From Desulfovibrio sp. (lineage in GTDB: Bacteria; Desulfobacterota; Desulfovibrionia; Desulfovibrionales; Desulfovibrionaceae): DNA of 24,000 nt. Under the pieces are notes generated by a model. That model was not told where the DNA came from. It did no database searches and saw only the letters and a program-made list of their open reading frames with translations. Shown piece after piece: positions 251 through 19,478 of the stretch. Both the position numbers and the translations under genes were made by a program. Numbering within the stretch: the stretch's first letter is position 1; every line of letters starts with the position of its first letter. The stretch spans positions 9,897 through 33,896 of the forward strand of contig JAITSV010000051.1 in assembly GCA_031287575.1 (NCBI GenBank), given 5' to 3'.

Positions 251-1507
251 TCAGCGCCGGATATGGCGCGTGAACTTGCTGCGCGCCTTGCCCTGCGCCT
301 CGGCCGCGGTGTCGATGATCTCGTCCCGCCGCGACTCCAGCGTGGCCACCACGCCCCTGTCCAGCAGCCCCCGGCGCACCCCGTCGCGCAGCACGTCGAT
401 GATCTCGTCGCGGCGCATGCCCGCGCGGTAGGGCCGGTCCTCGGCCAGGGCGGTGCACATGTCGGCCACGGCCATGATCCGCGAACCGATGCTGAGGCCG
501 CCCGCCCCGATACGGAACGGATAGCCGGAGCCGTCGAGCTTCTCGTGGTGAAACGCCGCCCATTCGGCGATGCCGCCAAGCCCCTTCATGGAGTTGAGCA
601 CCAGATAGGTGTGATAGGTGTGCTGGCGCATGACGGCGAATTCCTCGTCGGTGAGGGGTCCCGCCTTTTCCAGAATGGCGTTGGGCACCACCATCTTGCC
701 GAGGTCGTGCAGGTTGCCCGCGATCTCCATCAGGCGCGCCTCGGGCTCGGGCAGGCCGAAGGCCCGCGCCAATGCCCCGGCGGATGCGGAAACCCCGGCG
801 GAATGGGTGGCGGTGAACGGAGAGCGGAAGTCGATGATCTCGCGCACCAGCAGCGACCACGTGCGCACGCCGTCCAGGTCCAGTTGCAGGCGGCGGCAGG
901 GGTTGCGCTCGCTCAGAAAGGTGAACAGACGCGGCGAGACAAGGTTCAGCCAGAATTCGTCCCGGCCGGAAACCAGCAGAAAGGCCTCCACCACCCGGCG
1001 GTCAATGGCGCAGCCCGACATACGGCGGATTTCCGCGGTGAGGTCGTCGTGCTGGTGCAGCACGTAGATGCGCCGGTCCATGGACCGTTCCAGCGTGTCG
1101 GCCAGCAGGACGATCTGGGCCAGCAGGCCCACGCGCGGATCGGGGCCATGCGTCTCCAGTTCCGGCAGCGTGGCATGGTGCAGGCGCACCACCTCCGCCG
1201 CCTCGGCCAGGCCCGGCCCCTGCGCCAGCAACCCCGCGCCCACGGCGCAATGCTCGTCCATGCTTTCCACGCGCGATGCGCGCACGTCCAGCTTGTCTTC
1301 CGGCGACAGCGCGCCCACGTCGTGCAGCAACGACGCGATGAACAACGTCTCCTTGTCCTTCTGCGGAAGGTCCAGTGCCTCGGCCAGTTCCCACGCCACG
1401 AAGGCGACCCGCAACTGATGCTGCGACAGCGAAGGGCTCGCGAGATCGAGCGCCTCCGAGATGGACAACAGCATGTCCGACAGGTCGACCGAAATCCCCG
1501 AATACAT
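251..1507 (-). CDS. HD-GYP domain c-di-GMP phosphodiesterase with an additional N-terminal HD-type domain (418 aa from ATG 1507)
   Basis: C-terminal HDLGK … HHEKLDGSGYP signature (HHExxDGxGYP). Upstream second HD motif LLHDVGA. The track ORF extends to a GTG at 1579, but the ATG at 1507 (MYSGISVDL…) preceded by a G-run is the more plausible start. Confidence 0.85.
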   Translation of the reverse strand: MYSGISVDLSDMLLSISEALDLASPSLSQHQLRVAFVAWELAEALDLPQKDKETLFIASLLHDVGALSPEDKLDVRASRVESMDEHCAVGAGLLAQGPGLAEAAEVVRLHHATLPELETHGPDPRVGLLAQIVLLADTLERSMDRRIYVLHQHDDLTAEIRRMSGCAIDRRVVEAFLLVSGRDEFWLNLVSPRLFTFLSERNPCRRLQLDLDGVRTWSLLVREIIDFRSPFTATHSAGVSASAGALARAFGLPEPEARLMEIAGNLHDLGKMVVPNAILEKAGPLTDEEFAVMRQHTYHTYLVLNSMKGLGGIAEWAAFHHEKLDGSGYPFRIGAGGLSIGSRIMAVADMCTALAEDRPYRAGMRRDEIIDVLRDGVRRGLLDRGVVATLESRRDEIIDTAAEAQGKARSKFTRHIRR

Positions 1508-1618
1508 GGCCCCCCCGGCACTGTCCCGGCAACGCGGCGCCACTCCGTGCCCGCATTGCGCGTCCGGCCACCGCACCACGTTCCCCGGCGGTGTCCGACA
1601 ACATTGATGGTCCTACAC

Positions 1619-3649: not shown

Positions 3650-3883
3650 CTACACGGCCTCGACGCGCTTCACCTCGGCCACTTCCTTCAGCACCATGCG
3701 CTCCACGCCGCCCTTCAGGGTCTGCTGCGACATGGGGCAGCCCTTGCAGGCCCCGGTCAGGCGCACGCGGACCACGCCGTCGGCGGTGATCTCCACCAGT
3801 TCGACGTCGCCGCCGTCGCCCTGCAGATAGGGACGGACCTTGTCGAGGGCGGCCTGCACCCTTTCATGGATGGCATCGGACAT
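3650..3883 (-). CDS. Nfu / NifU C-terminal-domain Fe-S cluster scaffold or carrier protein (77 aa)
   Basis: MSDAIHERVQAALDKVRPYLQGDGGDVELV…LTGACKGCPMS, the Nfu-type CxxC motif. A strong AGGAGG sits 5 nt upstream of the ATG at 3883. The track ORF start at 3961 is an upstream extension. Confidence 0.88.
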   Translation of the reverse strand: MSDAIHERVQAALDKVRPYLQGDGGDVELVEITADGVVRVRLTGACKGCPMSQQTLKGGVERMVLKEVAEVKRVEAV

Positions 3884-4195
3884 GGAAACCTCCTGAAGTT
3901 CCCCCACCACCAAGAGGGAGAGGGGGACGAATGGCGTGCCGGGCAATGACATGCCTGACAAGGGCGGCGAACGCCGCGCCCTTCTACTGCCTTCGGCGGC
4001 GGGGTGTCAAACGGCGGTCTGGGATGGCGGAACGGAACAAGGATGCTAACCAGAAACATATGGGGGGATCACGTCCCCCCTTCCTGCTGGCTCGAAAAAT
4101 GCCTTTCTTCCCTATACTCCGCGCCGGGCTTCCGGCGCGGATGGCCAGTGCGGGCACGATGCGAGAAATTACGGGTTTTGCCCGCCGGGCAAGGC

Positions 4196-6928: not shown

Positions 6929-7927
6929 TTACGGCCTGCTGTCAATGACGTCGCCCGCATGCAGGCGATGTTCGTGCCCGGCGGCATCCACCAGGCGCAG
7001 CAGGCCGTCGGGGTCCACGTCGGCCACCAGCCCTTCCACCACGCCGTGCGGCGTGCCCACCCGCAGGGGGGTGCCGACGATGGCGGAAAGTTCCTTCCAG
7101 CGGGCGATGACCGGGCCGGGATCGCCCTCGCGCAGGGCGGCGTACCAGTGCTCGGCCCGTTCCAGAAAGGCGCGCAGCACGTCCACCCGCGATACGGGGC
7201 GGCCCAGCTCCGCCGCCAGCGAGGTGGCCTTGCCGCGCAGGTCTTCGGGCAGATCCTCGACGCGGGTATTCACGTTGATGCCCGCGCCGGTGACCACGTG
7301 GGACACCGTGTCGGCCACCAGCGCCACCTCGGTCAGGTTGCCCGACACCTTGCGGCCATGCAGCAGCACGTCATTGGGCCATTTGGCGCGCGGGGCAAGG
7401 CCGGTGACCTCTGCCACCGCCTCGGCCACGGCCACGGCGGTCATCAGGGTGACCAGCGGCGCGGCCTGCGGGGCAAGGCGGGGCCGCAGCACCAGCGAAA
7501 CGTACACCCCCACCCCGGCGGGCGACGCCCACACGCGACCGGCGCGGCCGCGACCGGCGGTCTGCGCCGAAGCCGCGACCACGGCGCCCTCGTCCGCCCC
7601 GCCCAGGGCCAGCAGCGCGGCCTCGCGGTTGGTGGAGTCGGTGGTTTCGTGCAGGACAAAGCCGCCCCGCCCGAAACAGCACGTGCTCAGCCCCCGGCGG
7701 ACACCATCAACGGTCAGCACGTCGGCCTCGGCCAGCATCCGGTATCCCCGGCGGGTCATGGCCTCGATCTGGTGCCCTTCACCGCGCAACGTCCGCACGT
7801 GCTTGGCCACGGCGGCCCGGCTTACACCAAGCTGCCGCGAAAGTTCCTCTCCCGACCGCCAGTTGCCGCCCGCTTCGCGCAACATGGCGAACACACGCAC
7901 CTTCGTGGTCGTCCTGTCTGTGTCCAC
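6929..7927 (-). CDS. birA: Bifunctional biotin-[acetyl-CoA-carboxylase] ligase / biotin operon repressor (class II BirA with N-terminal HTH)
   Basis: 332 aa. N-terminal winged HTH (GEELSRQLGVSRAAVAKHVRTLRGEG). Biotin-binding loop GRGRAGRVWASPAG (GRGRxGRxW). C-terminal SH3-like tail. Confidence 0.95.
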   Translation of the reverse strand: MDTDRTTTKVRVFAMLREAGGNWRSGEELSRQLGVSRAAVAKHVRTLRGEGHQIEAMTRRGYRMLAEADVLTVDGVRRGLSTCCFGRGGFVLHETTDSTNREAALLALGGADEGAVVAASAQTAGRGRAGRVWASPAGVGVYVSLVLRPRLAPQAAPLVTLMTAVAVAEAVAEVTGLAPRAKWPNDVLLHGRKVSGNLTEVALVADTVSHVVTGAGINVNTRVEDLPEDLRGKATSLAAELGRPVSRVDVLRAFLERAEHWYAALREGDPGPVIARWKELSAIVGTPLRVGTPHGVVEGLVADVDPDGLLRLVDAAGHEHRLHAGDVIDSRP

Positions 7928-7932
7928 GGCGA

Positions 7933-7965
7933 TTGTAAACCATCAGGCAATTGCTTGGTTGACAA
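7933..7965. promoter_or_regulatory. BirA operator (bioO) in the divergent birA / bioB control region
   Basis: TTGTAAACC (7933-7941), 15 nt spacer, GGTTGACAA (7957-7965). The arms match 8 of 9 positions as an inverted repeat and fit the known BirA-box form TTGTAAACC-N14/15-GGTTTACAA. The right arm contains a perfect -35 hexamer TTGACA (7959-7964) facing bioB, but the -10 (TACTCG) is poor. The site starts 6 nt from the birA start codon. Confidence 0.85.
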
Positions 7966-8023
7966 AATGGAACACGCCCGCTACTCGCCCTGAACTGCCA
8001 TTCAACAGGAGCGATACCGGAAC

Positions 8024-9118
8024 ATGAACCCCCTGCTGGAACGTTTGCGCGCGCGCCTTTCGGACACCATTCCCCCCGGAACGGAAGCTCCGTACGCATC
8101 GCCAGGCCACGCCCGCACGGCGGAAGTCCCCCGGCCCGGCATCACCGGAGAAGAGGCGCTCGCCGTGGCGCGGCTGCCCGCGTCCGACATCCTGGACATC
8201 CTGGCCGTGGCGCAGACCGTGCGTTCGGCCCACAAGGGGCCGTCGGCGACCACCTGCGGCATCGTCAACGCAAAGTCGGGCCGGTGCGGCGAGGATTGCG
8301 CCTTCTGCGCCCAGTCGTCGCACCACGACACGGGCGCCCCGGTGCATGCGCTGCTCGGCCCCGACGCGTTGCTGCGCCATGCGGAAGAACTGGCCCGCGC
8401 GGGGGTGCGCCGCTTCGGCATCGTGACCAGCGGCAACGCCCTTTCGGAACGGGAGTTCGACGCGGTCTGCCAGGCGGCGCGCCTGTTGCGCGACCGTGTG
8501 GACATCGGCCTGTGCGCCTCCCTGGGGCAGCTCGTTTCCGGCACCGCCAAGAGCGAAAACCGGGGAGAACGAGCCCGCCGCCTGAAGGACGCAGGCATTT
8601 CCAGCTATCACCACAATCTTGAAACGGCCAGAAGTTTTTTCCCGCAGGTATGTACCACGCACCCCTACGATGACGACATCGCCACCGTGCGCGAAGCCGC
8701 GCGGGCGGGGCTGCGCACCTGTTGCGGCGGCATCCTTGGCCTTGGCGAAACGTGGGAACACCGCGTGGAACTGGCCCTGACCCTGCGTGAACTGGACGTG
8801 GACTCCATCCCGCTGAACTTCCTGCATCCCGTTCCGGGCACACGGCTGGGCCACCGCAGTCCGCTGCCGCCCATGGAGGCCCTGCGGGCCATTGCCGTGT
8901 TCCGGCTGCTGCACCCCGGGCGGGACATCCTGGTGTGCGGCGGGCGCGAGACCACCTTGGGCCAATGGCAAGCGTGGGTGTTCGCCGCCGGGGCCAACGG
9001 GCTGATGGTGGGCAACTACCTGACCACGGCGGGGCGCGCCCTTGCCGACGACATGGACATGCTGGCCACGCTGGGCGTGGGCGGAATTGCCCGCAATGGC
9101 GAGGGGGCACGGGCATGA
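8024..9118 (+). CDS. bioB: Biotin synthase (radical SAM)
   Basis: 364 aa. CGEDCAFCAQS is the CxxxCxxC radical-SAM motif. The rest is colinear with BioB. It has an N-terminal extension of about 35 aa relative to E. coli BioB. AGGAG lies at 8007-8011. Confidence 0.95.
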   Translation: MNPLLERLRARLSDTIPPGTEAPYASPGHARTAEVPRPGITGEEALAVARLPASDILDILAVAQTVRSAHKGPSATTCGIVNAKSGRCGEDCAFCAQSSHHDTGAPVHALLGPDALLRHAEELARAGVRRFGIVTSGNALSEREFDAVCQAARLLRDRVDIGLCASLGQLVSGTAKSENRGERARRLKDAGISSYHHNLETARSFFPQVCTTHPYDDDIATVREAARAGLRTCCGGILGLGETWEHRVELALTLRELDVDSIPLNFLHPVPGTRLGHRSPLPPMEALRAIAVFRLLHPGRDILVCGGRETTLGQWQAWVFAAGANGLMVGNYLTTAGRALADDMDMLATLGVGGIARNGEGARA

Positions 9119-10608
9119 GCGGACGGACGACGGATACCGGCATGCCCGGAGCACCCAGCACTCCCCCCACGGCAACGGACGCCACCCTGCGCCTGCGCGC
9201 GCTGGACAAGGCCCACGTGTGGCACCCCTTCACCCAGATGCGCGACTGGCTGGCGGCGGACCCGCTGGTCATCACCGCCGCCGAGGGCAACCGGCTCATG
9301 GACACCGACGGCGTGTCCTACCTGGACGGGGTGTCCTCGCTGTGGACCAACGTGCACGGGCATCGCCACCCCCGGTTGGACGCGGCCATCCGGGCACAAC
9401 TGGACAAGGTGGCCCATACCACCCTGCTGGGCCTGGGCAGCGAGCCATCCATAGAGCTGGCGGCGCGCCTTGCCGCCATCGCCCCGCAGGGGCTGACGCG
9501 GGTGTTCTATTCCGACAGCGGGTCGACAGCGGTGGAGGTCGCGCTGAAGATCGCCTTCCAGTTCCACCGCCAGGCCCCGGCGCATCTGGCGCATCCGGCG
9601 CATCTGGGCGGCGACGCCCGGCGCACCCGCTTTCTCAGCCTGCGCAACGCCTACCATGGCGACACCGTGGGCGCCGTGGCCCTGGGCGGCATGGCCCTGT
9701 TCCATTCCATCTACGCGCCGCTGCTGTTCGACACGGTAAAGGCGGAAAGCCCGTACTGCTACCGCTGTCCGTTCGGGCGGCAGGCCTGGACGTGCGAACG
9801 GGAATGCATCACCCACATGGAAACGCTGTTCGCCCGGCACGGCCACGAACTGTGCGCCGCCGTGGTGGAGCCGCTGGTGCAGGGCGCGGCGGGCATGCTG
9901 CTGCAGCCGCCCGGCTGGCTGCGCCGGGTGCGCGAACTGTGCGACGAGCACGGTGTGTTCCTGATTGCGGACGAGGTGGCCGTGGGCTTCGGCAAGACCG
10001 GCACCCTGTTCGCCTGCGAACAGGAAGGGGTGACGCCCGACTTCCTGTGCCTGGCCAAGGGCATTTCCGGCGGTTACCTGCCGCTGGCCGCCACCCTGAC
10101 CACCGAGCGGGTGCACGACGGCTTTCTGGCCCGCCACGAGGAATTGCGCACCTTCTTCCACGGCCACACCTACACCGGCAACCCGCTGGCCTGCGCGGCG
10201 GCCATCGCCTCGCTGGACGTGTTCGAGGAAGAACGGGTGATGGAGCGGCTGCAACCCAAGATCACCCGGCTGGCCACGCGGCTGGAAACGCTGCGCGACC
10301 TGCCCCACGTGGGGGACATCCGTCAGCGCGGAGTCATGACCGGCATCGAGATGGTGCGGGACCGCGATACGAAGGAAGGCTACGACCTGGCCCTGCGCAT
10401 GGGCCACCGGGTAACCCTGGAGGCACGGCGGCGCGGGGTGATCATCCGCCCGCTGGGCGACGTGATGGTACTCATGCCGCCCTTGTCCATCACCGACGAC
10501 GAGATCGACCTGCTGGTGGACGCCACGGGCGAAGCCATCCGCGCGGTGACCGAACGCGGGGCGACTGGCGGACTGGAAGCGCTGCCTGCCGTGCCGGGGG
10601 CGGCATGA
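9115..10608 (+). CDS. bioA: Adenosylmethionine-8-amino-7-oxononanoate aminotransferase
   Basis: 497 aa from the ATG at 9115, which forms an ATGA overlap with the bioB stop. Class III aminotransferase pattern: HVWHPFTQM, YHGDT, DEVAVGFGKTG, CLAKGISGGYLP. The track ORF from 8935 is an upstream extension. Confidence 0.93.
   Translation: MSGRTTDTGMPGAPSTPPTATDATLRLRALDKAHVWHPFTQMRDWLAADPLVITAAEGNRLMDTDGVSYLDGVSSLWTNVHGHRHPRLDAAIRAQLDKVAHTTLLGLGSEPSIELAARLAAIAPQGLTRVFYSDSGSTAVEVALKIAFQFHRQAPAHLAHPAHLGGDARRTRFLSLRNAYHGDTVGAVALGGMALFHSIYAPLLFDTVKAESPYCYRCPFGRQAWTCERECITHMETLFARHGHELCAAVVEPLVQGAAGMLLQPPGWLRRVRELCDEHGVFLIADEVAVGFGKTGTLFACEQEGVTPDFLCLAKGISGGYLPLAATLTTERVHDGFLARHEELRTFFHGHTYTGNPLACAAAIASLDVFEEERVMERLQPKITRLATRLETLRDLPHVGDIRQRGVMTGIEMVRDRDTKEGYDLALRMGHRVTLEARRRGVIIRPLGDVMVLMPPLSITDDEIDLLVDATGEAIRAVTERGATGGLEALPAVPGAA
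9581..9607 (+). repeat. In-frame 9-nt tandem repeat x3 inside bioA
   Basis: CGCATCTGG CGCATCCGG CGCATCTGG encodes AHL-AHP-AHL. It lies in an insertion relative to E. coli BioA, just before the conserved FLSLRNAYHGDT. Confidence 0.85.
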
Positions 10609-11279
10609 CCGCCACGGGTGACACGCACGTCACCGTGCGTTGCGGGGTGTTCCGGTTCGACCCGGCCCACCCGCTGTTCGCGGATCATTTCCCCGGCGCC
10701 CCCGTGGTGCCGGGGTCGTGCATCGTGCAGGCCTTTGCGGACGAAGCGTCGCGCTGGGCCCACGAGCACGCTCGGGGGGACGGAGGGACGCCGGAAGTGA
10801 TCGAATCCGGGCGGCAGGCAGGCCTGCGGGAAGCATTGCCCGCAGGGATGTCGGTAACGCCAGGGGCCGGGTCTGCCGGTGTCCCTCCGCATTCCGCCGG
10901 GGACGGGCCGGATGGCCGTCTGCCCGAAGAAGCCCCGCACGCGGCATGCGCGATGCCCGCAATACACTCTGTACGCCCGATACGCCCGATACGCCCGATA
11001 TGTAAGGCACGCGGGTTCCGTTTCCGGCGCTTCGTGTCGCCGGGGGACTATGCCTTCCGCATGGAATGCACGGATGAAGGCCTGCGCTGCTCGCTGCACG
11101 CGCTGCCCCATGGGCACGCCGCAACGGAAGGGCAAACGCCGGGTGCCCCGCATGGACCGGATGGGGCTGATGGACCGGACGGGCCGGATGGACCGCATAG
11201 ACCGGACGGGCCGGACGCGACGACCGCCCCTTCCCCCACTGCCCCCAGTCCCTTGGTCACCGGGGTGCTGGCGTGGTAG
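10605..11279 (+). CDS. FabZ/FabA-like hotdog-fold dehydratase subunit, His-bearing, with a large low-complexity insertion (224 aa)
   Basis: The ATG at 10605 forms an ATGA overlap with the bioA stop. FDPAHPLFADHFPGAPVVPGSCIVQAFAD aligns to FabZ [26 protein letters not shown]: the His is kept, but Gln replaces the dyad Glu at +14. The C-terminal ARGFRFRRFVSPGDYAFRMEC aligns to FabZ [20 protein letters not shown]. The two halves are separated by about 90 aa of Pro/Gly/Ala-rich sequence. Confidence 0.75.
   Translation: MTATGDTHVTVRCGVFRFDPAHPLFADHFPGAPVVPGSCIVQAFADEASRWAHEHARGDGGTPEVIESGRQAGLREALPAGMSVTPGAGSAGVPPHSAGDGPDGRLPEEAPHAACAMPAIHSVRPIRPIRPICKARGFRFRRFVSPGDYAFRMECTDEGLRCSLHALPHGHAATEGQTPGAPHGPDGADGPDGPDGPHRPDGPDATTAPSPTAPSPLVTGVLAW
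10972..10998 (+). repeat. In-frame 9-nt tandem repeat x3 (perfect) in the FabZ-like gene
   Basis: TACGCCCGA x3 encodes (V)RPIRPIRPI. Confidence 0.9.
11152..11214 (+). repeat. In-frame degenerate 9-nt tandem repeat x7 in the FabZ-like gene
   Basis: ATGGACCGG ATGGGGCTG ATGGACCGG ACGGGCCGG ATGGACCGC ATAGACCGG ACGGGCCGG encodes GPDGADGPDGPDGPHRPDGPD. Confidence 0.85.
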
Positions 11280-12121
11280 CCGCCGCCGGACTGTCCTCCC
11301 CCCTGCGCGGCCCCGTGCTCATCGCCGGGGGCTCGTGCGAACTGGGGCTGGCCCTCGGGGCGGCGATGGCCGCCGACGGCATGGCCGTGGCCCTTACCGT
11401 GCGCGATGCAGCGGGCGCGGCGCGCATCCGCGCGGCCCTGCCCCATGTGATGGGTACGCCCGAAGCGGCGGTGCTGCGCCTGCACGCACGCCGCCCGGAA
11501 CGGGGCACCGTCGGACAGGATTTCACCACGCCGCCTGCACTCGACGGTGCGGACGCCGAAGACGACACCCCGGAAACCCTGCCCGAACGCGCCCGTGCGG
11601 CACTGGGGGAAGCCCCCCGATTGTTCGTGGACCTGCTGCACTCGCGCTTCGAATGCCTGCTGGCCGGAGCTGACCCCGCCGACATCGACCTGTGGGCCGC
11701 GCGCGACATCGCCTTTCGCGCCCGGCTGCTGCGGGCCGTCAGCCGGTCCATGCTGGCCGCGCGCGACGGGCGGTGCGTGTTCGTCTCGTCCTCCGCCGCG
11801 GAGCGGGCCGCGCCGGGGCAAGGGTACTACGCCGCCGCCAAGCTGGCCGGGGAGGCCCTGTACCGCGCCGTGGGCGTGGAACTGGCACCGCGTGGGGTCA
11901 CCGCCTGTTCGCTGCGGCTGGGCTGGCTGGAGGCGGGCCGGGGCGCGCCGTTCCTGCAATCCCGTGCCGCGGGCGCTCCCCTGCCGCCCACCGGGCGCAC
12001 CGTGACCCTTGCCGAGGCCGTGCAGACCCTGCGTTTTCTGCTGTCCGCCCCGGCCACGGCCATCAACGCCACCACCCTGACCTGCGACGGCGGCTTCGGC
12101 GCGCTGAAACCGGCCTGCTGA
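11273..12121 (+). CDS. Short-chain dehydrogenase/reductase, FabG-like 3-oxoacyl-ACP reductase candidate (282 aa)
   Basis: The GTG start at 11273 overlaps the preceding stop (GTGGTAG). Variant Rossmann motif VLIAGGSCELG. Catalytic Ser region VFVSSSAA. YYAAAK is the YxxxK motif. C-terminal TLTCDGGF. There is an acidic insertion of about 35 aa after the second strand. Confidence 0.8.
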   Translation: MVAAAGLSSPLRGPVLIAGGSCELGLALGAAMAADGMAVALTVRDAAGAARIRAALPHVMGTPEAAVLRLHARRPERGTVGQDFTTPPALDGADAEDDTPETLPERARAALGEAPRLFVDLLHSRFECLLAGADPADIDLWAARDIAFRARLLRAVSRSMLAARDGRCVFVSSSAAERAAPGQGYYAAAKLAGEALYRAVGVELAPRGVTACSLRLGWLEAGRGAPFLQSRAAGAPLPPTGRTVTLAEAVQTLRFLLSAPATAINATTLTCDGGFGALKPAC

Positions 12122-12201
12122 GCCGCGTTCCGAGCATCCCGCCGGTTCCCGAAGCGGGACCGGCCCACCCTTTCGACCACCATCCACAGCACAACATCAC
12201 C

Positions 12202-12624
12202 ATGCCCGCACAGACCCGACACGAACCGCACGACATCGCGGTGGCCATCGCCGCGCTGGTGGCCCCCATCTTCGACGTGGACCCGGCCACCCTGTCCCCG
12301 AGCACCCGGCTTATGGCCGACCTGCCCTGCGAATCCATCGACCTGCTGGAAATCGGTGCCGGGCTGAACCGCTGCTTCGCCATTCCGGTGCGCGATGCCG
12401 CCGCCTTTCTCACCGACCTGCGCATCCACGTGCTGGAGGCGGAACGCACCGGCGAAGCGCCCGAAGCCCGGCTGGCGCGGGAATACCCACACCTGTCCGC
12501 CACGCGCGTGGCGGAAGTGCTGGCGGCAGTGCGCGTGCCCGGTGCGCCCCCGGTTCTGACCATCGGTGACGTGGTGGCCTACGTGGCATGGAGCCTCGCC
12601 CGGCACGCTGGCCAACCGGCCTGA
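12202..12624 (+). CDS. Acyl carrier protein-like phosphopantetheine-binding protein, atypically long (140 aa)
   Basis: The N-terminal roughly 75 aa have ACP layout, with LMADLPCESIDLLEIGAGL corresponding to the DLGxDSLDxVEL serine-attachment helix. They are followed by a C-terminal extension of about 60 aa with no motif I recognise. It lies in frame with the tail of track ORF 11692-12624. No obvious Shine-Dalgarno sequence. Confidence 0.7.
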   Translation: MPAQTRHEPHDIAVAIAALVAPIFDVDPATLSPSTRLMADLPCESIDLLEIGAGLNRCFAIPVRDAAAFLTDLRIHVLEAERTGEAPEARLAREYPHLSATRVAEVLAAVRVPGAPPVLTIGDVVAYVAWSLARHAGQPA

Positions 12625-12642
12625 TCGACAGGCGCCACGCCC

Positions 12643-13986
12643 ATGCAGCCCCCTTCCTGCCTGCCTCTTTCCCCCCACCGCGTGGTCATCACCGGCGCGG
12701 GCGCGGTGACCCCGCTGGGCCACACCCCGCAGGACGTGGCGCGCGCCATCCGCAAGGGGCACAGCCCGTTCCGCCATGCCCCGGCCCTGCCCGGCGCGGC
12801 CTGCGCCCCGGTGCCGGACTTCGACGCCGCAACGGCCACCGGACGCTGGCGGCACCGCCGCTATCTTTCGCGCGGGGGGCTGCTGGCCCTTGTCGCCGCC
12901 CTGACCGCCACCCGGCAGGCCGGATACGCGTGTGACAGCGAGACGACGCAGGGCAACGACGGCACGCATCCTTTGCCCTGCCTTCCGGACGACACCGCGC
13001 TGGTGGCCGCCAGCGGCCCCAACATGGACGTGACCGCCGATTTTCCGGCGGCCAGCGGGCGAATCCGGCTGCTGCACGACACCCCGCCCGGTCTGGAACA
13101 CCCCGGTCTGGACGCCCTGTGGATGCTGCGCTGGCTGCCCAACACCGCCGCTTCCGCCGTGGCCATGCGCTGTGGTGTCCGGGGTGAGGGGCTGGTGCTG
13201 GGCACGGCCTGCGCCGCCTCGTTGCAGGCCGTGGGCGAAGCCGCCCGGCGGGTGCGCTGGGGCCTTGCCCCGGCGGCTCTGGCCGTGGGCGGCGATTCGC
13301 GCCTGTCCGAGGGGGGATTGCTGGGCTACGCCCGCGCCGGGGCCATCCAGCGCGACCTGGACCCCGCCGACGCCAACGCCCCGCACCACGCCTGCCGCCC
13401 CTTCGACACCTCGCGGCGCGGCTTCGTACCCGGCGAGGGGGGCGCGGCCTTCGTGCTGGAGCCGCTGGACATGGCACTGGCGCGCGGGGCCGCGCCACTG
13501 GCCGAGGTGCTGGGCATGGGGGCCACGCTGGACGGCCACGCCCTGACCGCGCCGGAACCCGACGCCCGCCGGGCCGAGGCCGCCGTGCGCGGCGCGCTGG
13601 CCGAGGCTGGCCTGACGCCCGGCGACGTGCACTGGGTGGCGGCCCACGGCACCGGCACCGCCCTCAACGACGCGGCGGAAATCCGCCTGCTGGAACGGGT
13701 GTTCGCAGACGCTGGGCACGCCCCCGCCGTCACCGCCGTGAAGTCGTGGACCGGGCACTGCGCCTCGGCCTGCGGCGCGGTGGAACTGGCCGTGCTGCTG
13801 GCCTGCGCGGCGGACGGCTTTCTGCCGCCGGTGCGCAACCTGACCACGCCGGAAAGCGCACGGCTGGATTTTGTGCGCCCGGTGCGTCAACCGCGCCCCC
13901 TGCCCGCTTTCGGCAACGGCTCCGTCGGCCTGCTGCTCAATTTCGGCTTCGGCGGGCAGAACGCCGCACTGGTAGTGCGGTTGTGA
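12643..13986 (+). CDS. Beta-ketoacyl-ACP synthase, elongating KAS I/II (FabF/FabB-like) type
   Basis: 447 aa. HRVVITGAGAVTPLG N-terminus. Active-site Cys in GTACAASLQAVGEA. His in AAHGTGTALND. Lys/His in VKSWTGHCASACG. C-terminal NFGFGGQNAALVV. This gives a Cys-His-His triad, not the KAS III Cys-His-Asn triad. Confidence 0.9.
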   Translation: MQPPSCLPLSPHRVVITGAGAVTPLGHTPQDVARAIRKGHSPFRHAPALPGAACAPVPDFDAATATGRWRHRRYLSRGGLLALVAALTATRQAGYACDSETTQGNDGTHPLPCLPDDTALVAASGPNMDVTADFPAASGRIRLLHDTPPGLEHPGLDALWMLRWLPNTAASAVAMRCGVRGEGLVLGTACAASLQAVGEAARRVRWGLAPAALAVGGDSRLSEGGLLGYARAGAIQRDLDPADANAPHHACRPFDTSRRGFVPGEGGAAFVLEPLDMALARGAAPLAEVLGMGATLDGHALTAPEPDARRAEAAVRGALAEAGLTPGDVHWVAAHGTGTALNDAAEIRLLERVFADAGHAPAVTAVKSWTGHCASACGAVELAVLLACAADGFLPPVRNLTTPESARLDFVRPVRQPRPLPAFGNGSVGLLLNFGFGGQNAALVVRL

Positions 13987-14546
13987 CCCCTTTCCACCAC
14001 GCCCTGCCGCAGGAAACCCCCGACCGCTTCCTGCTGCTGGATCGGCTGGATGTCTGTGATCCGACCGGGGCCACGGCCCGCCGCGCCTTCGCCGCCGCGC
14101 CCCCGTGGCAGGGGCTGGAGGCCATGGCCCAACTGGCCGCGCTGCATGCCCGCTGGACAGCCGACTTCACTCTGCACGCCTTTCTGCTGACGGTGGATGA
14201 ATGCACCTGGCCGCCCCACGTACCGGCAGCCGACGTGCACCACGGCATGTCAAACAGCACACCGGGCAGCACACCGGGCAACACACCGGGCAACACACCG
14301 GGCGGCGCACTGCACGGCACCCTGTACATCCGGGCCGATCTGCTGGCCGAAAGCGACCGCGCGGCCACCTATGCGGCCACCATCACGCCCCTGACAGTCT
14401 TCTCCGACGCGGCTTCCGCGCCTGCGCCCCCGTACATGGCCGCCACCCTGACCATAGGCCGCGCGCCCTACGACACCCGCTTCAACGGCGGCACGCTCAC
14501 CGCCCGCTATCACGAGATATTTGCATGGCTGACCAGAATCGCCTGA
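13983..14546 (+). CDS. Second FabZ-like hotdog-fold protein, Glu-bearing and lacking the HFPG histidine segment (187 aa)
   Basis: The GTG at 13983 forms a GTGA overlap with the KAS stop. LPQETPDRFLLLDRLDV aligns to FabZ LPHRFPFLLVDRVLD. PPWQG-LEAMAQ aligns to FabZ PFFQG[[13 protein letters not shown]]LEAMAQ with the bracketed 13 residues absent. This is the only frame with sensible sequence across 13987-14524. Confidence 0.65.
   Translation: MTPFHHALPQETPDRFLLLDRLDVCDPTGATARRAFAAAPPWQGLEAMAQLAALHARWTADFTLHAFLLTVDECTWPPHVPAADVHHGMSNSTPGSTPGNTPGNTPGGALHGTLYIRADLLAESDRAATYAATITPLTVFSDAASAPAPPYMAATLTIGRAPYDTRFNGGTLTARYHEIFAWLTRIA
14256..14303 (+). repeat. In-frame 12-nt tandem repeat x4 in the second hotdog gene
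   Basis: AGCACACCGGGC x2 then AACACACCGGGC x2 encodes STPG STPG NTPG NTPG. Confidence 0.9.
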
Positions 14547-16003
14547 CCGATGCCCGCCTGCCCGGCACTGACTTGTCCGGCTCTGACTTGTCCGGCTCTG
14601 ACTTGTCCGGCACTGACCTGTCTGGCACTGACCTGTCTGGCGCAACGCCCGTCGCCGCCCCGCATCCTGCCTCTCCCGGCCTGCTGGCCGCGCGTCTGGC
14701 CCTGCGGGTGGAGGAACTGCACGCCGCAGGCCTTGGCCGCAACGCGCTGCCGCTGGACGGGCTGCCCACCCCAATGTCCCGCAGTGCCGCCGGGCAGCCT
14801 CCCTCCCCGGCGCTGGTGCACATGGAGGGCCGTCCGCTGCTCCATTTCGCGGGCAACGATTATCTGGGGCTTGCCTCCGATAAGGAATGGCGGGCCACGG
14901 TGGCCGCCTGCTTCGCGCACCACGCGCCCTCGGGCACGGCCTCGCGCCTGGCCGCCGGGCACACCGTCCTGGCGGCGGAAGCCGAGGCCGCCTGGGCCGA
15001 ATACTTCGGCTACGCCGAATGCCTGTTCCTGCCCAGCGGGTATCAGGCCAACCTGGCCCTGCTGTGGGGACTGCTGGGGCACGGCGATGCCGTGTTCCTG
15101 GACCGCCGGGTGCACGCCAGCATGGCCCACGCCCTGCCCCCCACCGGAGCGCGCCTGCATACGCACCGGCATGCGGACATGGACGACCTGTCGCGCCGCC
15201 TGGCCGCGTGGCGTGCCGATGGCAACGACGGTCCGCCCGCCTGCGGGACGGCCTGCGCCCCCCAGCCCGTTGTCCTGGCCGAATCGCTGTACAGCATGGA
15301 CTCCACCCTGCCGGACATGGCCCGCCTGGGCGCGGTGGCCCGTGAACACGGGGCCTTCGTCATCGTGGACGAAGCCCACGCATTCGGCGTGCTGGGCGCG
15401 GGCGGACGCGGGCGGGCGCACGGCGTGGCCGACGTGGCCGTGGGCACGCTGGGCAAGGCGCTGGGGCTGTTCGGAGCGTTCCTGCTGCTGCCGCGCGGCA
15501 CCCGGAACGCGCTGGAAAACCTGGCCTCGCCGCTGATCCACTCCACCGCCCTGCCGGAAGCGCACGCCGCCTGCTGCCTGGCCCTGCTGGACCTGCTGCC
15601 CCGGCTGGACGACCGCCGCCACCATCTTGCCGCGCTGGGCGCGGCCCTGCGCACCGGGCTGCGCGCCGAAGGGGTGCCCGTGCGCGAGGGGGCCCACGTG
15701 GTCTGCGTGGACGTGGGCGACGAGGAGCGCTGCACCCGCCTCGCGGCAAGGCTGCGCACCCCCACGGATGGCGGCCCCGGCGTGCTGGCCCTGGCCGCGC
15801 GCCACCCCACCGTGCCGCGTGGCGCCGCCACCCTGCGCCTGGGCCTTACCGCCCTGCACCGGGTGGACGACGTGGCCCGTTGCGTGGATCTGCTGGCCCG
15901 TGCGTGGAAAGAAGAGGAAGAAAAGCAGAACGCTGCACCGCAGCATGCTTTCCTCGATTCGGGGACGGATACCGCTGACGGCGCACCGGGAGAACAATCA
16001 TGA
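14525..16003 (+). CDS. bioF: 8-amino-7-oxononanoate synthase with an N-terminal repeat-containing extension (492 aa)
   Basis: LLHFAGNDYLGLA, SGYQANLALLWGLL, DEAHAFGVLG and GTLGKALG (PLP lysine) are colinear with BioF. The only ATG upstream of the conserved N-terminal helix is at 14525, and it overlaps the previous gene by 22 nt. The track ORF from 14201 is an Arg-rich artefactual extension. Confidence 0.88.
   Translation: MADQNRLTDARLPGTDLSGSDLSGSDLSGTDLSGTDLSGATPVAAPHPASPGLLAARLALRVEELHAAGLGRNALPLDGLPTPMSRSAAGQPPSPALVHMEGRPLLHFAGNDYLGLASDKEWRATVAACFAHHAPSGTASRLAAGHTVLAAEAEAAWAEYFGYAECLFLPSGYQANLALLWGLLGHGDAVFLDRRVHASMAHALPPTGARLHTHRHADMDDLSRRLAAWRADGNDGPPACGTACAPQPVVLAESLYSMDSTLPDMARLGAVAREHGAFVIVDEAHAFGVLGAGGRGRAHGVADVAVGTLGKALGLFGAFLLLPRGTRNALENLASPLIHSTALPEAHAACCLALLDLLPRLDDRRHHLAALGAALRTGLRAEGVPVREGAHVVCVDVGDEERCTRLAARLRTPTDGGPGVLALAARHPTVPRGAATLRLGLTALHRVDDVARCVDLLARAWKEEEEKQNAAPQHAFLDSGTDTADGAPGEQS
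14567..14641 (+). repeat. In-frame 15-nt tandem repeat x5 at the bioF 5-prime end
   Basis: ACTGACTTGTCCGGC, TCTGACTTGTCCGGC x2, ACTGACCTGTCTGGC x2 encodes TDLSG SDLSG SDLSG TDLSG TDLSG. Confidence 0.92.
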
Positions 16004-16743
16004 ACGCAATGAACCAGCCCCCCTCCCGCGCCCTGTTCGTGGTGGGCACGGACACGGGCGTGGGCAAGACGGTGGTTTCCATGCTGCTGCTGCGCGAGCT
16101 GTTCGCGCGGGGGGAGCGGCCCTTCTACGCCAAGCCCATGCAGACCGGGTGCAAAAACCCGTACGACACGGACAGCGACGCGGCCTTCGTGTACCGGCAC
16201 GTTCCGGAACTGGCCGGGCGCGACCCGGCGGAGGCGGTGGGGTGGTGCTTCGCGGCGCCTAAGGCTCCGCTCCACGCCGCGCGGGACGAAATGCGCGGCG
16301 TGGAGACGGAAGACCTGGTGCGCAGTCTGGCATGTCTGCGCGGTGAACACGCCTCTCTGGTCCTTGAAGGAGCGGGCGGTCTGATGGTGCCGTTCACGTC
16401 AAAGGCCCTGTGCATCGACTGCATCCGGGCCGCCGACGCCCGTCCCGTGCTGGTGGCGCGGGCGGGACTGGGCACCGTGAACCACACGCTCCTCTCGGTG
16501 GAGGCGCTGGTCCGGAGAGGGATGGAACCGGCAGGGATCGTTTTCGTTCACACCAAGGAACGTTCCGCATCCCCGGACCTTGTGCGGGGCAACATGGAGG
16601 CGGTAGCCATGCTGTCCGGTTTTCCGGTGAGCGGCGTGGTGCCGCCCATCGAAAATCTGCTGCATCCGCCCGACGCCGCCTTCGCGCCCTTGCGGCGCAT
16701 GCTCGACGTGCCAGACAGGGCGGACGGGGTGGGAATCAGCTAA
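16000..16743 (+). CDS. bioD: Dethiobiotin synthetase
   Basis: 247 aa. ATGA overlap with the bioF stop. P-loop FVVGTDTGVGKTVVS. KPMQTGC and LEGAGGLMVP match BioD. Confidence 0.92.
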   Translation: MNAMNQPPSRALFVVGTDTGVGKTVVSMLLLRELFARGERPFYAKPMQTGCKNPYDTDSDAAFVYRHVPELAGRDPAEAVGWCFAAPKAPLHAARDEMRGVETEDLVRSLACLRGEHASLVLEGAGGLMVPFTSKALCIDCIRAADARPVLVARAGLGTVNHTLLSVEALVRRGMEPAGIVFVHTKERSASPDLVRGNMEAVAMLSGFPVSGVVPPIENLLHPPDAAFAPLRRMLDVPDRADGVGIS

Positions 16744-16818
16744 CTCCCCTCACCTGCGTTTTCCTCGTACCCCCATATGGGGATGAAAGGCCGGATGAGG
16801 GTTTTCGTTCGTTGGCAA

Positions 16819-16877
16819 GGAAAACGAGCCTGCCATGAGGGAGCATACTCTTCTCGTATTCGACCGATATGGCAGGC
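16819..16877 (-). terminator. Candidate lysA terminator in the convergent bioD / lysA gap
   Basis: Minus strand: 9-bp stem GCCTGCCAT / ATGGCAGGC (16828-16836 and 16869-16877) with a 32-nt loop, followed by TCGTTTTCC. The large loop makes this atypical. Confidence 0.35.
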
Positions 16878-16916
16878 GAAGTTTGACGAAGCCAACGGGT
16901 GAAAAGACCATCCGGC

Positions 16917-18197
16917 TTACGCATCCGGGAACAGCGCCATCAAATCAGCCAACTCCTCCCGGCGGCGAATCAGCCGGGGCTGGCCATCAAGGCCGATGAG
17001 CACCTCGGCGGGGCGCAACCGCTGGTTGTACGTGGAGCTCATGGCGTAGCCATAGGCCCCGGCGTCCAGCACGCCCAGGATGTCGCCCTCCTGGATGGCG
17101 GGCAGCTGCCGTTCCTTGGCCATGATGTCGCCGCTCTCGCAGATGTTGCCCACCACGGTCTGGGGGTGCAGGGCCGCGTCGGGGGTACCGTTCTTGCGGT
17201 ACACCTCGATGTCGTGGTGCGCGTCGTACATCACCGGGCGAGCCAGCACGTTGAAGCCAAGGTCGGTGCCCACGTAGCGGGTGGGGCCGTTGTTCTTGGT
17301 GGCGTGCACGGTGCCCAGCAGCAGGCCGCATTCGGCCACCACGTAGCGGCCCGGCTCGATGTAGAAACGGCCCTTGTAGCCGGTGCGCTCCGACCAGCCG
17401 GAAATGAGCGCGTGCAGGCGTTCCGCCGTGGCGGCCAGGTCCAGCCGGGACTGGTCCTCGTACTTGCGGTAGGGAATGCCGAAGCCGCCGCCGAAGTCGA
17501 TGACCTCCACGGTGTCGAACTTTTCCGCCACGGACAGCAAAAATTCCGCCGCCGCCACGTACCCGTCCGGTTCCAGGAACAGCGAGCCGATGTGCTGGTT
17601 GATGCCCGCCAGGGTCATGTCGTGCCTGGCCAGAATGGCCCGCAACTCGGCCAGCGAGGCGTCGGAGGGGTCCACGCCGAACTTGGTGGCCTTGCCCGCC
17701 GTGACCACCTTCTGGTGGTGCCCCGCGCCGATGCCGGGGTTGAAGCGCACCATCACCTTGCCGCCCCGGTTCACCCTGCCCAGGGTGTCCAGCTGCGACA
17801 GCGAATCCACGCTCACCAGCAGGCCATGCGACACGGCGTTGGCCAGTTCCGCCTCGGACACGTTGTTGCACACGTACAGGATCTGGTCCGGGGTGAACCC
17901 GGCGGCCTCGTTGACGTGGATTTCGCCGGGCGACATGGCGTCCACCACCAGCCCTTCCTCGCGCACGATGCGCAGCAGGGAAAGATTGGTGTTGGCCTTG
18001 GCCGAATAGTTCACGAAAAAGCCGGGGTGCGGCGACAGGGCCTTCATGTCGCCGCAGCGGGCGCGCAGCAGGGCCTCGCTGTAGACGTACAGCGGGCTGC
18101 CGAAGGCGGCCACCAGTTCTTCGGGCGTGGTCCGGCCAAAGAAGCCGACCGCATCGGTGTACGTGGAACGAACGTTGGGCATGAAGGTCTCCGTCAT
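16917..18197 (-). CDS. lysA: Diaminopimelate decarboxylase
   Basis: 426 aa. Fold-type III PLP decarboxylase. YSAKANTNLSLLRIV carries the PLP lysine. GGGFGIPY and VGNICESGD motifs. Length typical of LysA. Confidence 0.9.
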   Translation of the reverse strand: MTETFMPNVRSTYTDAVGFFGRTTPEELVAAFGSPLYVYSEALLRARCGDMKALSPHPGFFVNYSAKANTNLSLLRIVREEGLVVDAMSPGEIHVNEAAGFTPDQILYVCNNVSEAELANAVSHGLLVSVDSLSQLDTLGRVNRGGKVMVRFNPGIGAGHHQKVVTAGKATKFGVDPSDASLAELRAILARHDMTLAGINQHIGSLFLEPDGYVAAAEFLLSVAEKFDTVEVIDFGGGFGIPYRKYEDQSRLDLAATAERLHALISGWSERTGYKGRFYIEPGRYVVAECGLLLGTVHATKNNGPTRYVGTDLGFNVLARPVMYDAHHDIEVYRKNGTPDAALHPQTVVGNICESGDIMAKERQLPAIQEGDILGVLDAGAYGYAMSSTYNQRLRPAEVLIGLDGQPRLIRRREELADLMALFPDA

Positions 18198-18243
18198 GTT
18201 TCCGGTGTGGGCCGCGTCTTGCGCGGCGCCCGTCCGGTGTGCG

Positions 18244-19023
18244 TCAGTTGTCCGAAACGGGGACCGATCCGGCGTCAGGTATTGAGCCTGCCATGGAGCC
18301 CGGCATGGCGGCGCGGATGCGGATCAGCTCCATTTCATGCAGGATGGCCTCGCGCATCAGGTACACCAGGTGCTCGTTGCGCGAATACAGGCAGCGCCCG
18401 CTCACGCCCGGCTCCAGCAGACCCGCGATGACCTCGCTGGTGTCGGCGATGAGCTTCACGTGGCCGGTGCCCGCCTGGTTCTTCAGAAAGGTGGCCCCGG
18501 CAATGCCCGGCTCGGCATTGGACAGCAGCACCACCTTCAGCCCCCGCGCCACGCAATCGTCGAACTCGCGCCGGAACAGCGCCACGTTGTCCGCGTGCAT
18601 GGATGCATACACCCGCAGCCGCGCCAGGTGCAGCATGTTGCGGATCTTGTCCTCGGTGTTGCGCAGGCCCGCCACGGTCAGATAGGGCGTCTCGTCCGGC
18701 TCGGTGTCCGGCAGGTTGGCTTCGAGGAAGGCCAGCGTGCCTTCGGCGTCGCGTCGCAGGTTCAGCAGCAGTTCCTCGCGCGGGACGGCCATGTAGCGGC
18801 TGGTATCGCCGCTGGCCACCACGGCCCCGCCCTTCTCCACCAGGCTCGACAGCGCCGCGTAGGCGTTGGAGCGCGAAATTCCGGCGGCCTTGGCCGCCTC
18901 GTACCCGGTCATGGGACCATGGGGACTCTGGGGATTCTGGCCCGCGTGCCGCAGCAGGGTAAGGTACATCAACGATTCCTGCTGGGTGAAACCGAACTTG
19001 CGCAACGCCTGAATGAGTTCCAT
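18244..19023 (-). CDS. TrmB family transcriptional regulator (259 aa from ATG 19023)
   Basis: N-terminal winged HTH MELIQALRKFGFTQQESLMYLTLL…GYEAAKAAGISRSNAYAALSSLVEKGG, followed by a TrmB-C-like effector domain. GGAAGGAAG lies upstream of the ATG. It ends 46 nt upstream of lysA, so the two are possibly co-transcribed. Confidence 0.8.
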   Translation of the reverse strand: MELIQALRKFGFTQQESLMYLTLLRHAGQNPQSPHGPMTGYEAAKAAGISRSNAYAALSSLVEKGGAVVASGDTSRYMAVPREELLLNLRRDAEGTLAFLEANLPDTEPDETPYLTVAGLRNTEDKIRNMLHLARLRVYASMHADNVALFRREFDDCVARGLKVVLLSNAEPGIAGATFLKNQAGTGHVKLIADTSEVIAGLLEPGVSGRCLYSRNEHLVYLMREAILHEMELIRIRAAMPGSMAGSIPDAGSVPVSDN

Positions 19024-19478
19024 GTGCTTCCTTCCAAAGGCCCGCCGGGATGGCGGGGTACCTGTGCATGAGGGCCGGATGACCGGATGACCGGGCAGCC
19101 AGGCGGCGGACGGGCGTCCGAGCGGCAAGGGCGGGGCTGACGACAACGCCGCCTTGCGCTACACTGGCCACGGTGCCGTCCCGGCATCCGCCGAAGTTTC
19201 TCCGCCCCGCTCCGTGCGCCTGGCCAGTTGCTGGCCACGGCGACACCGGGTCCCATGCGCGGCGGGGAAAACTCATGCGTGGTACTGATTGGTACTACTA
19301 GCGTCGCGTTTGCGGTTTGTCAACGTCCGAAGCACGGAATCCGGCCATCATCCGGCCATCCGGCGCCCCCGCGCACCACCGCCCCTGCGGTCCGATGCCA
19401 CGGCGGCCCGGTAATCCGGCACCTGGCGGCGGCACCGCGCCCGCGCCGCGCCCCCCGTGTCCCCTGTACGCACGGTCG

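Follow-up and report, generated by a model that had tools for sequence, protein, structure and literature searches.

A candidate dedicated pimeloyl-ACP module within the biotin operon of a Nitratidesulfovibrio genome

The Locus and Its Genes

The 24-kb stretch of Desulfovibrio DNA analysed here, referred to as the window, carries an extended biotin operon in which five genes resembling those of type II fatty acid synthase (FAS) lie between bioA and bioF. They encode two small hot-dog proteins (DH1 and DH2, putative dehydratase subunits), a ketoreductase (KR), an acyl carrier protein (ACP) and a ketosynthase (KS). It is likely that this module is a private FAS-like elongation system supplying pimeloyl-ACP to BioF, the single steps being less certain (see below). 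The arrangement and role are already known, as they were predicted in 2004 and supported by mutant genetics in the same genus in 2023. The module consists of the following genes:

10605-11279, + strand: DH1, ApeI-like hot-dog subunit; 24-bit FabA Pfam match over residues 19-60 (His motif only)
11273-12121, + strand: KR, divergent short-chain dehydrogenase/reductase (SDR), candidate 3-oxoacyl-ACP reductase; adh_short_C2 and adh_short matches, residues 151-275 only
12202-12624, + strand: ACP, dedicated long ACP of 140 aa with Ser in an ESID motif
12643-13986, + strand: KS, FabF-derived elongating ketosynthase; ketoacyl-synt N and C domains, Cys190/His335/His372
13983-14546, + strand: DH2, ApeP-like hot-dog subunit; Glu46 in WQGLEAMAQ, no His loop

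The genes follow each other in the order bioB-bioA-DH1-KR-ACP-KS-DH2-bioF-bioD as a single plus-strand run with overlapping or tight junctions. The original prediction, made from the letters of the window, had described this nine-gene operon with its BirA operator, and all starts, stops, translations and eight junctions were confirmed on re-reading, as was the operator. The ring-assembly genes, the regulator and the junctions are as follows:

6929-7927, - strand: birA, bifunctional biotin-protein ligase and repressor (HTH_11 E = 5e-12, BPL_LplA_LipB E = 5.5e-21)
7933-7965, between birA and bioB: BirA operator TTGTAAACC-N15-GGTTGACAA, read directly
8024-9118, + strand: bioB, biotin synthase (TIGR00433 372.6 bits, cut-off 225; Radical_SAM and BATS domains)
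9115-10608, + strand: bioA, aminotransferase from 7-keto-8-aminopelargonate (KAPA) to 7,8-diaminopelargonate (DAPA) (TIGR00508 548.8 bits, cut-off 405)
14525-16003, + strand: bioF, 8-amino-7-oxononanoate synthase (TIGR00858 252 bits, below the cut-off of 426; Aminotran_1_2)
16000-16743, + strand: bioD, dethiobiotin synthase (TIGR00347 128 bits, cut-off 83)
9115-9118, + strand: bioB/bioA junction, ATGA overlap
10605-10608, + strand: bioA/DH1 junction, ATGA overlap
11273-11279, + strand: DH1/KR junction, GTGGTAG overlap
12122-12201, + strand: KR/ACP junction, 80-nt gap
12625-12642, + strand: ACP/KS junction, 18-nt gap
13983-13986, + strand: KS/DH2 junction, GTGA overlap
14525-14546, + strand: DH2/bioF junction, 22-nt overlap
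16000-16003, + strand: bioF/bioD junction, ATGA overlap

The operator shows one mismatch to the consensus TTGTAAACC-N14/15-GGTTTACAA (PMC545781), and birA is transcribed divergently from the operon in the arrangement described by Rodionov 2004 (PMC545781). Judged from the operator and the divergent birA, the operon appears to be under BirA control, by which the four ring-assembly enzymes would be co-expressed with the module. An AGGAG motif lies 11 nt upstream of the bioB ATG. Many spurious open reading frames (ORFs) are present in the window because its G+C content is ~70%; the starts of DH1, DH2 and ACP match both homologue lengths and independent gene calls. The start of bioF at 14525 is the least certain, and its overlap with DH2 nonetheless recurs in related genomes. 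When 7800-17000 was scanned for promoters and terminators, no signal exceeded the level expected from shuffled sequence, and no Rfam match was found within the window. In the 80-nt KR-ACP gap (12122-12201), the sole sizeable intergenic one, nothing resembling a promoter or a terminator and no Rfam match was seen; no obvious Shine-Dalgarno sequence precedes the ACP start.

The closest proteins to those of the window come from Nitratidesulfovibrio liaohensis, N. oxamicus, N. termitidis and strain Miyazaki F, with one JGI match at 99-100%. The window is thus from Nitratidesulfovibrio, the genus that now holds D. vulgaris Hildenborough (DvH). Three other loci of this genus (L003-L005 in our scan, see below) have the same gene order at 60-96% identity. 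Lin & Cronan 2011 is a further reference for the extended bio operon of DvH, besides the two studies described next.

Earlier Prediction and Mutant Data

Rodionov 2004 (PMC545781) predicted the five-gene module in the Desulfovibrio bio operon to be a novel pimeloyl route, because bioC/H/G/W were missing, and placed a BirA site between the extended bio operon and the divergent birA. In the D. vulgaris numbering of that study, bioB is 208055 and lysX-lysA is 208064, and the layout of the window, bio genes followed by lysA/lysX, matches this. Direct genetic support came from Trotter 2023 (PMC10102598), where random barcode transposon-site sequencing (RB-TnSeq) in avidin-depleted medium showed that DVU2558-2565 are specifically needed by DvH in the absence of biotin. 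Among the needed genes are those for the KR, ACP and KS and the two FabZ-like ones; growth without biotin also depended on the nitroreductase-like DVU1220, and only the cluster and DVU1220 were biotin-specific (PMC10102598). No bioC or bioH was reported in DvH in that study, and its authors hypothesized a specialised ACP without methyl esters and speculated that the active sites are less hydrophobic (PMC10102598). They further noted in-cluster nitroreductase genes in other Desulfobacterota and suggested that the missing enoyl reductase is either a nitroreductase-like protein or a housekeeping enzyme, leaving the essential FAS enzyme DVU2064 as the alternative (PMC10102598).

The finding that every module gene is needed without biotin in a member of the same genus (PMC10102598) supports the BioF-feeding role of the module. 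The original prediction of a dedicated route to the pimeloyl thioester of BioF on a private ACP is therefore plausible and backed by these fitness data. Its implied novelty did not survive, since the same hypothesis stands in Trotter 2023 (PMC10102598). It had also mentioned FAS-like genes in Desulfovibrio bio operons and a lack of biochemistry; the 2004 prediction bears out the former and our literature search, which found no biochemistry of this pathway after Trotter 2023, agrees with the latter, but the 2023 genetics had been missed.

Distribution and Conserved Neighbourhood

A profile of DH2 retrieved 221 family representatives (50% identity clusters) among 1.84 billion proteins, which points to a small and specific family. 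Scanning with one genome per species gave 80 loci, from Desulfovibrionaceae (including Bilophila), Desulfobacterales, Syntrophales, Syntrophobacterales, Desulfarculales and SAR324. The core DH1-KR-ACP-(gap)-KS-DH2-bioF-bioD is near-invariant across loci, in ~50 genomes of several orders; DH1 and DH2 genes co-occur in 48 of 52 loci, and of the 58 loci with a length of 8 kb or more that entered an all-against-all ORF census, 54 have bioF directly after DH2. The positions of bioB, bioA and birA vary among loci, and bioB also switches strand between taxa. The gene arrangement is far beyond chance because it recurs in dozens of genomes.

No other conserved gene was revealed by the census of the 58 loci, and among them no methyltransferase, alpha/beta-hydrolase, FabD or FabI. 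The statement of the original prediction that BioC, BioH, BioW, BioI and BioZ are not encoded holds for the window, where BioG, BioK and BioJ are likewise absent, and none of all these is conserved in the 58 related loci.

Several departures from the common layout were seen. In four loci of D. piger and gut Desulfovibrio (L026, L063, L069, L075), the cluster is split with bioF not adjacent, and KR-ACP-KS-DH2 is preceded by a conserved ~155-aa signal-peptide protein instead of DH1. In L070 and L080, KR-ACP-KS and DH2-bioF are ~8 kb apart. Many Desulfobacterales-type loci hold a second bioA type, 35-38% identical to the BioA of the window, which forms a separate ORF-census cluster of 33 loci; it is found downstream of bioD (L012, L030, L032, L035, L039, L043, L044, L071, L079) or beside birA (L047, L062, L072) and not upstream of DH1. 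Module genes resembling those of Desulfovibrionaceae were also met on contigs labelled Odoribacter splanchnicus (L054, L070) and Bulleidia sp. (L056, L065), with DH2-bioF and, in L070, also KR-ACP-KS. These Bacteroidota- and Firmicutes-labelled contigs are probably bin contamination and not part of the true distribution.

The Two Hot-Dog Proteins

The active site of FabZ is shared between subunits: one provides the His of HFPGxPxxPG and the other the Glu of LEAMAQ, which lies 14 residues further on. In DH1, the catalytic His28 lies in DHFPGAPVVPG, and Gln42 occupies the position of the catalytic acid, where it aligns on the FabZ catalytic Glu in a profile-to-PDB alignment. Among 48-50 orthologous loci the His motif of DH1 is universal, while the His+14 position drifts (H 25, Q 7, E 5, R 3, and also K/S/N/A/D/G/L). 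DH1 has 224 aa against a family median of ~110 aa, the extra length being low-complexity inserts, and scores 25 bits with the FabZ model TIGR01750 (cut-off 155). Its AlphaFold2 (AF2) model was poor (predicted local distance difference test, pLDDT, of 58, with disordered inserts) and was set aside.

The complementary pattern is found in DH2, which gave no Pfam or NCBIfam match. Among 133 diverse members, Glu46 and Arg57 are conserved in all 133, Ala49 and Gln50 in 132 and His55 in 126. All ten PDB sequence-profile matches of DH2 are FabZ-type dehydratases, with the E-A-x-A-Q helix aligned on the FabZ catalytic Glu; in the FabZ match of the profile (E = 0.007), the His loop falls within a deletion of 14 residues. 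For DH2, AF2 predicts a hot-dog fold (pLDDT 73) in which the central helix begins at Glu46. Neither protein, then, has the features of homodimeric FabZ (TIGR01750/PF07977), namely His and Glu in one chain and a score above the cut-off. The catalytic residues have been lost reciprocally, as DH1 keeps the His and not the acid and DH2 keeps the Glu and not the His.

In published work, ApeI and ApeP make up a heterodimeric dehydratase that is described as having only one active site (PMC8041823). The references used here were those of the aryl-polyene cluster of E. coli CFT073, which define the Pfam families PF22818 (ApeI) and PF22817 (ApeP); ApeI carries the His and ApeP carries ELMAQ without the His. 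Comparison of profiles by hhalign linked DH2 with ApeP (E = 2.7e-4, 95 columns) and gave no match of DH2 with ApeI, while DH1 matched ApeI weakly (E = 0.019, probability 2.5%, 25 His-motif columns) and ApeP not at all. The ApeI/ApeP structure (PDB 6qsr) was among the structural matches of the DH2 model. Precomputed annotations of the DH homologues, treated as a hint only, gave PF22818 in 23 of 23 and PF22817 in 2 of 27. From the reciprocal residue loss, the similarity to ApeI/ApeP and the precedent of that pair, we infer that DH1 and DH2 would form a heterodimer with one composite site of the ApeI/ApeP type. With such a heterodimer, it would be understandable that DvH needs each of the two small genes. 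The two proteins had been described as FabZ-like in the original prediction, but as neither has the full catalytic pair they are better read as halves of an ApeI/ApeP-type dehydratase.

Ketosynthase, ACP and Ketoreductase

The best matches of the KS are all FabF or FabB, and it shows neither the fold of ketoacyl-ACP synthase III (KAS III) nor the Cys-His-Asn triad of the BioZ type. It scores 246 bits with fabF TIGR03150, below the cut-off of 494. An alignment of 52 KS sequences (51 orthologues and the window) with E. coli FabF, the reference being identical to PDB 6okg, showed that the equivalents of FabF Cys163, His303, His340, Lys335 and Phe400 are 100% conserved. Other positions are changed across the KS family: Ala193 of FabF becomes Arg220 (96%), Phe202 becomes Tyr229 (100%), Gly310 becomes Asn342 (100%) and Phe132/Phe133 become Leu159/Trp160. 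The N-terminal third of the KS is barely alignable to any solved KS.

In FabF, a bulky residue in place of Gly310 obstructs the pocket that the Phe400 gate occupies when open, and activity falls ~50-fold. The Asn342 codon lies at 13666-13668 in the window, and the residue is invariant across the KS family; an invariant Asn at this position suggests altered gating. Ala193 of FabF, the counterpart of Arg220, is presumably a pocket-lining residue. The acyl pocket of FabF is described as having a back gate made of Ile108 and Phe202, and Phe400 as swinging into the pocket at Gly310 (bioRxiv 10.1101/2021.02.13.431092). The acyl pocket of the KS thus seems to be remodelled, and a polar, charged pocket would fit a free omega-carboxylate, although this is only a lead.

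The ACP falls below the cut-offs of general carrier-protein models (PP-binding PF00550 17.7 bits against 20.8; NF002150 acyl carrier protein 25 bits). Its family (57 members, 116-156 aa) keeps the ESID motif, aligned on Ser36 of AcpP, at 90% or more and has a conserved insertion of ~45 residues that AcpP lacks; homologues within the genus have 138-143 aa. The best NCBIfam match of the KR is FabG at 58 bits (cut-off 332). The KR family keeps the catalytic Ser/Tyr/Lys (SS.Aa, GfYAAaK), while its Gly-rich motif is degenerate (GG.c.l.l vs TGxxxGxG). When the domains assigned in the original prediction were examined with profile hidden Markov models, the N and C domains of the KS came out clearly, whereas only a half-match was obtained for the KR, 24 bits for DH1, a sub-cut-off score for the ACP and nothing for DH2. 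An origin of the whole module from an aryl-polyene cluster was considered and rejected, as the KS and KR profiles score higher against FabF/FabG than against ApeO/R/Q. The module is evidently a mosaic and not a transplanted aryl-polyene cluster, because its KS and KR profiles favour FabF and FabG.

The Enoyl Reduction Step

In 38 loci, a gap of ~650 nt between ACP and KS holds a gene of the Nitroreductase family (PF00881). No nitroreductase gene was found in the window by tblastn with the 38 in-cluster nitroreductases. Matches at 3725-4153 (E ~0.01) were rejected as they run antisense to a NifU-like gene (3650-3961, - strand). A nitroreductase-like partner, absent from the window, may be encoded elsewhere in the genome as in DvH. 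The missing enoyl reductase is more likely a nitroreductase-like protein than a housekeeping FAS enzyme. The original prediction was right that the window encodes no enoyl reductase, but its proposal that the step is borrowed from housekeeping FAS II is probably wrong in view of the nitroreductase gene found in the module in 38 loci.

Proposed Mechanism and Alternatives

We propose that the dedicated long ACP would be malonylated, presumably by housekeeping FabD. The FabF-derived KS would accept an omega-carboxy acyl group, malonyl in the first round and glutaryl in the second, and would condense each with malonyl-ACP. Each 3-oxo product would be reduced by the divergent SDR and then dehydrated by the DH1:DH2 heterodimer, whose composite site, after ApeI:ApeP, would combine His28 of DH1 with Glu46 of DH2. 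For the final reduction, an enoyl reductase from elsewhere in the genome would be used, and the likeliest candidate is the nitroreductase-like flavoprotein found in the module in most other taxa. Two rounds would give pimeloyl-ACP with a free omega-carboxylate, which BioF could take directly. No methyl-ester disguise would be needed; its part may be taken over by the remodelled, polar pocket of the KS (Arg220, Tyr229). Taken jointly, an obligate ApeI/ApeP-type heterodimer, an Arg/Tyr-lined KS pocket that lets malonyl prime and a nitroreductase-fold enoyl reductase make up a tentative picture that is possible but short of probable.

Several points weigh against this picture. Each of its particulars, from substrate, primer and chain length to cofactor and the physical complex of DH1 with DH2, is a prediction. 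Malonyl-ACP is normally decarboxylated by a KS of the Cys-His-His type, and the scheme gives no account of how the primer carboxylate would escape this. Ordinary FAS II enzymes process 3-ketopimeloyl-ACP (PMC12625853), so a dedicated KR and DH are not obviously required by charge alone. In the analogous case of BioZ, the proposal that Arg147 neutralises the carboxylate failed in mutagenesis (PMC12625853). As regards the dehydratase, the DH1-ApeI and DH2-ApeP similarities are weak, a local Pfam scan of the window proteins and short homologues gave no match to PF22817 or PF22818 at E <= 1, Foldseek places thioesterases of the 4HBT type level with FabZ and ApeP among the matches to the DH2 model, and no DH1 stands beside KR in the four loci of the D. 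piger group.

The decarboxylation problem would be avoided if a glutaryl thioester made elsewhere were extended by a single C2 unit to 3-oxopimeloyl-ACP and then to pimeloyl-ACP. BioZ uses glutaryl and malonyl-ACP in just this way as a natural route to pimeloyl-ACP (PMC12625853), and the primer is not fixed by the present data. Such a one-round scheme is nevertheless improbable, as the KS is a FabF-type Cys-His-His enzyme and not an acyl-CoA-primed KAS III, no gene for the formation or transfer of glutaryl-CoA is conserved in the 58 loci, and in DvH the biotin-specific genes were limited to the cluster and DVU1220 (Trotter 2023, PMC10102598). A stronger competitor, though still an unlikely one, concerns the enoyl reductase, which could be a housekeeping FabI or FabK while the nitroreductase-like protein is employed otherwise, for example in donating electrons to the radical-SAM enzyme BioB. 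The window and the related clusters contain no known class of enoyl reductase, Trotter 2023 (PMC10102598) leaves DVU2064 as an option, and the predicted binding of flavin mononucleotide (FMN) and [4Fe-4S] by DVU1220 would also suit an electron donor. The nitroreductase gene, however, sits between ACP and KS in 38 loci, whereas bioB shifts in position and strand, and every other step has a dedicated enzyme.

It could also be supposed that DH1 works alone and that DH2 acts on the dedicated ACP as a hot-dog thioesterase or as a gatekeeper of chain length. With the DH2 model, Foldseek indeed puts 4-hydroxybenzoyl-CoA thioesterases at the top (template modelling score, TM, ~0.45-0.58), DH2 is without a Pfam match, and its invariant Glu together with His55, Arg57 and His65 could form a hydrolytic site. 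We regard this as very improbable, since the ten PDB sequence-profile matches are FabZ-type without exception and hhalign links DH2 to ApeP; DH1 has no conserved catalytic acid and hence would be unable to work alone, and free pimelate would need a BioW-like ligase, which is not conserved in the 58 loci. Least credible of all is a classical methyl-ester disguise through unrecognised enzymes encoded elsewhere, or a lipid product unrelated to biotin whose genes are embedded here fortuitously. The absence of bioC and bioH is demonstrable for the window only, which leaves some room for it. Against it stand the 58 loci, in which no methyltransferase or hydrolase is conserved, the lack of bioC/bioH and the biotin-specific requirement for all module genes in DvH (PMC10102598), the bioF-bioD linkage conserved across orders and the BirA control of the operon. 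The two-round scheme ending in a DH1:DH2 dehydratase and a nitroreductase-like reductase is preferred here on balance.

Repeats and Flanking Genes

In-frame tandem repeats were observed at 10972-11000, 11148-11215, 14258-14303 and 14562-14641, with periods of 9, 9, 12 and 15 nt. They encode RPI and PDG in DH1, TPGN in DH2 and SG(T/S)DL at the N-terminus of BioF, lengthen the proteins relative to orthologues (DH1 224 vs ~110 aa, DH2 187 vs 159 aa) and differ in copy number among close relatives. The N-terminus of BioF is a tail of SG(T/S)DL repeats, encoded by a 15-nt unit in 5.3 copies (14562-14641), which gives a spurious Pfam Pentapeptide match.

The upstream flank lies entirely on the minus strand and holds genes for an HD-domain protein, gltX, a NifU-like gene, an LPG-synthase-C protein and a MatE transporter, followed by birA. 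The first of these, at 251-1579 (- strand), is an HDOD and HD-GYP-type protein; neither it nor the small NifU-like protein mentioned above is connected to the module. Downstream of the operon are lysA (-), a TrmB-like regulator (-), an M20 peptidase, an FKBP and a GGDEF protein. The lysA gene (Orn/DAP decarboxylase domains) and the TrmB-like regulator, at 16917-19146 (- strand), lie immediately downstream of bioD, and the pair matches lysX-lysA, the subject of a LysX regulon that was predicted for Desulfovibrio by Rodionov 2004.

Significance

The way in which the pimeloyl moiety is made varies among bacteria, and no other part of biotin synthesis is understood so little. The Desulfovibrio-type route, which is confined to anaerobes, is the one published candidate that apparently runs FAS chemistry on a free dicarboxylate without the methyl-ester trick. 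The window adds another species and no new principle, and it is no more testable than the existing DvH system. The modest new leads are the split-site DH1:DH2, Arg220 and Tyr229 of the KS, and the nitroreductase-fold enoyl reductase. If the last of these is true, a nitroreductase-fold flavoprotein would be a new structural class of enoyl-ACP reductase. The pathway could serve anaerobic production of pimelate or biotin.

Comparison with Known Systems

The closest known system is the extended bio operon of DvH (DVU2558-DVU2565 and DORF42491), which comes from the same genus and has the same gene content and order, including the divergent birA with a BirA site and the downstream lysA-lysX. The sequences differ at the species level, and in the window DH1, DH2 and BioF carry in-frame low-complexity repeat insertions. 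The ACP of the window is probably the orthologue of DVU2562, as judged from genus and synteny, the ACP protein search having returned no entry named DvH.

The ApeI:ApeP pair likewise consists of two small hot-dog proteins, one with the His of HxxxxPxxPG and the other with the Glu of ExxAQ and without the His loop. It differs in its polyene substrate, whereas a short dicarboxylate is predicted here, and in that the KS and KR of the window are closer to FabF and FabG than to ApeO/R/Q. The BioC/BioH system of E. coli resembles the proposed route in taking a malonyl thioester through two FAS-type rounds to a pimeloyl thioester that is delivered on ACP to BioF. In contrast to it, the window and the 58 loci are without methyltransferase or esterase, and the ACP, KS, KR and DH of the module are dedicated and not housekeeping proteins.

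BioZ of alpha-proteobacteria is also a biotin-dedicated ketosynthase that handles a free omega-carboxylate and provides pimeloyl-ACP to BioF (PMC12625853). BioZ is, however, a FabH-like Cys-His-Asn enzyme that uses glutaryl-CoA and then relies on housekeeping FAS II, while the KS of the window is FabF-like with Cys-His-His. The type II FAS itself (FabF/FabG/FabZ/AcpP) shares with the module its folds, the Cys-His-His-Lys-Phe400 set of the KS, the Ser-Tyr-Lys of the KR, the Ser of the ACP and the hot-dog His and Glu. The five module proteins nevertheless lie far below the NCBIfam equivalog cut-offs; the pocket hairpin and the N-terminal third of the KS are remodelled, the ACP is 40-60 aa longer, the cofactor motif of the KR is degenerate, and the catalytic pair of the dehydratase is split over two genes.

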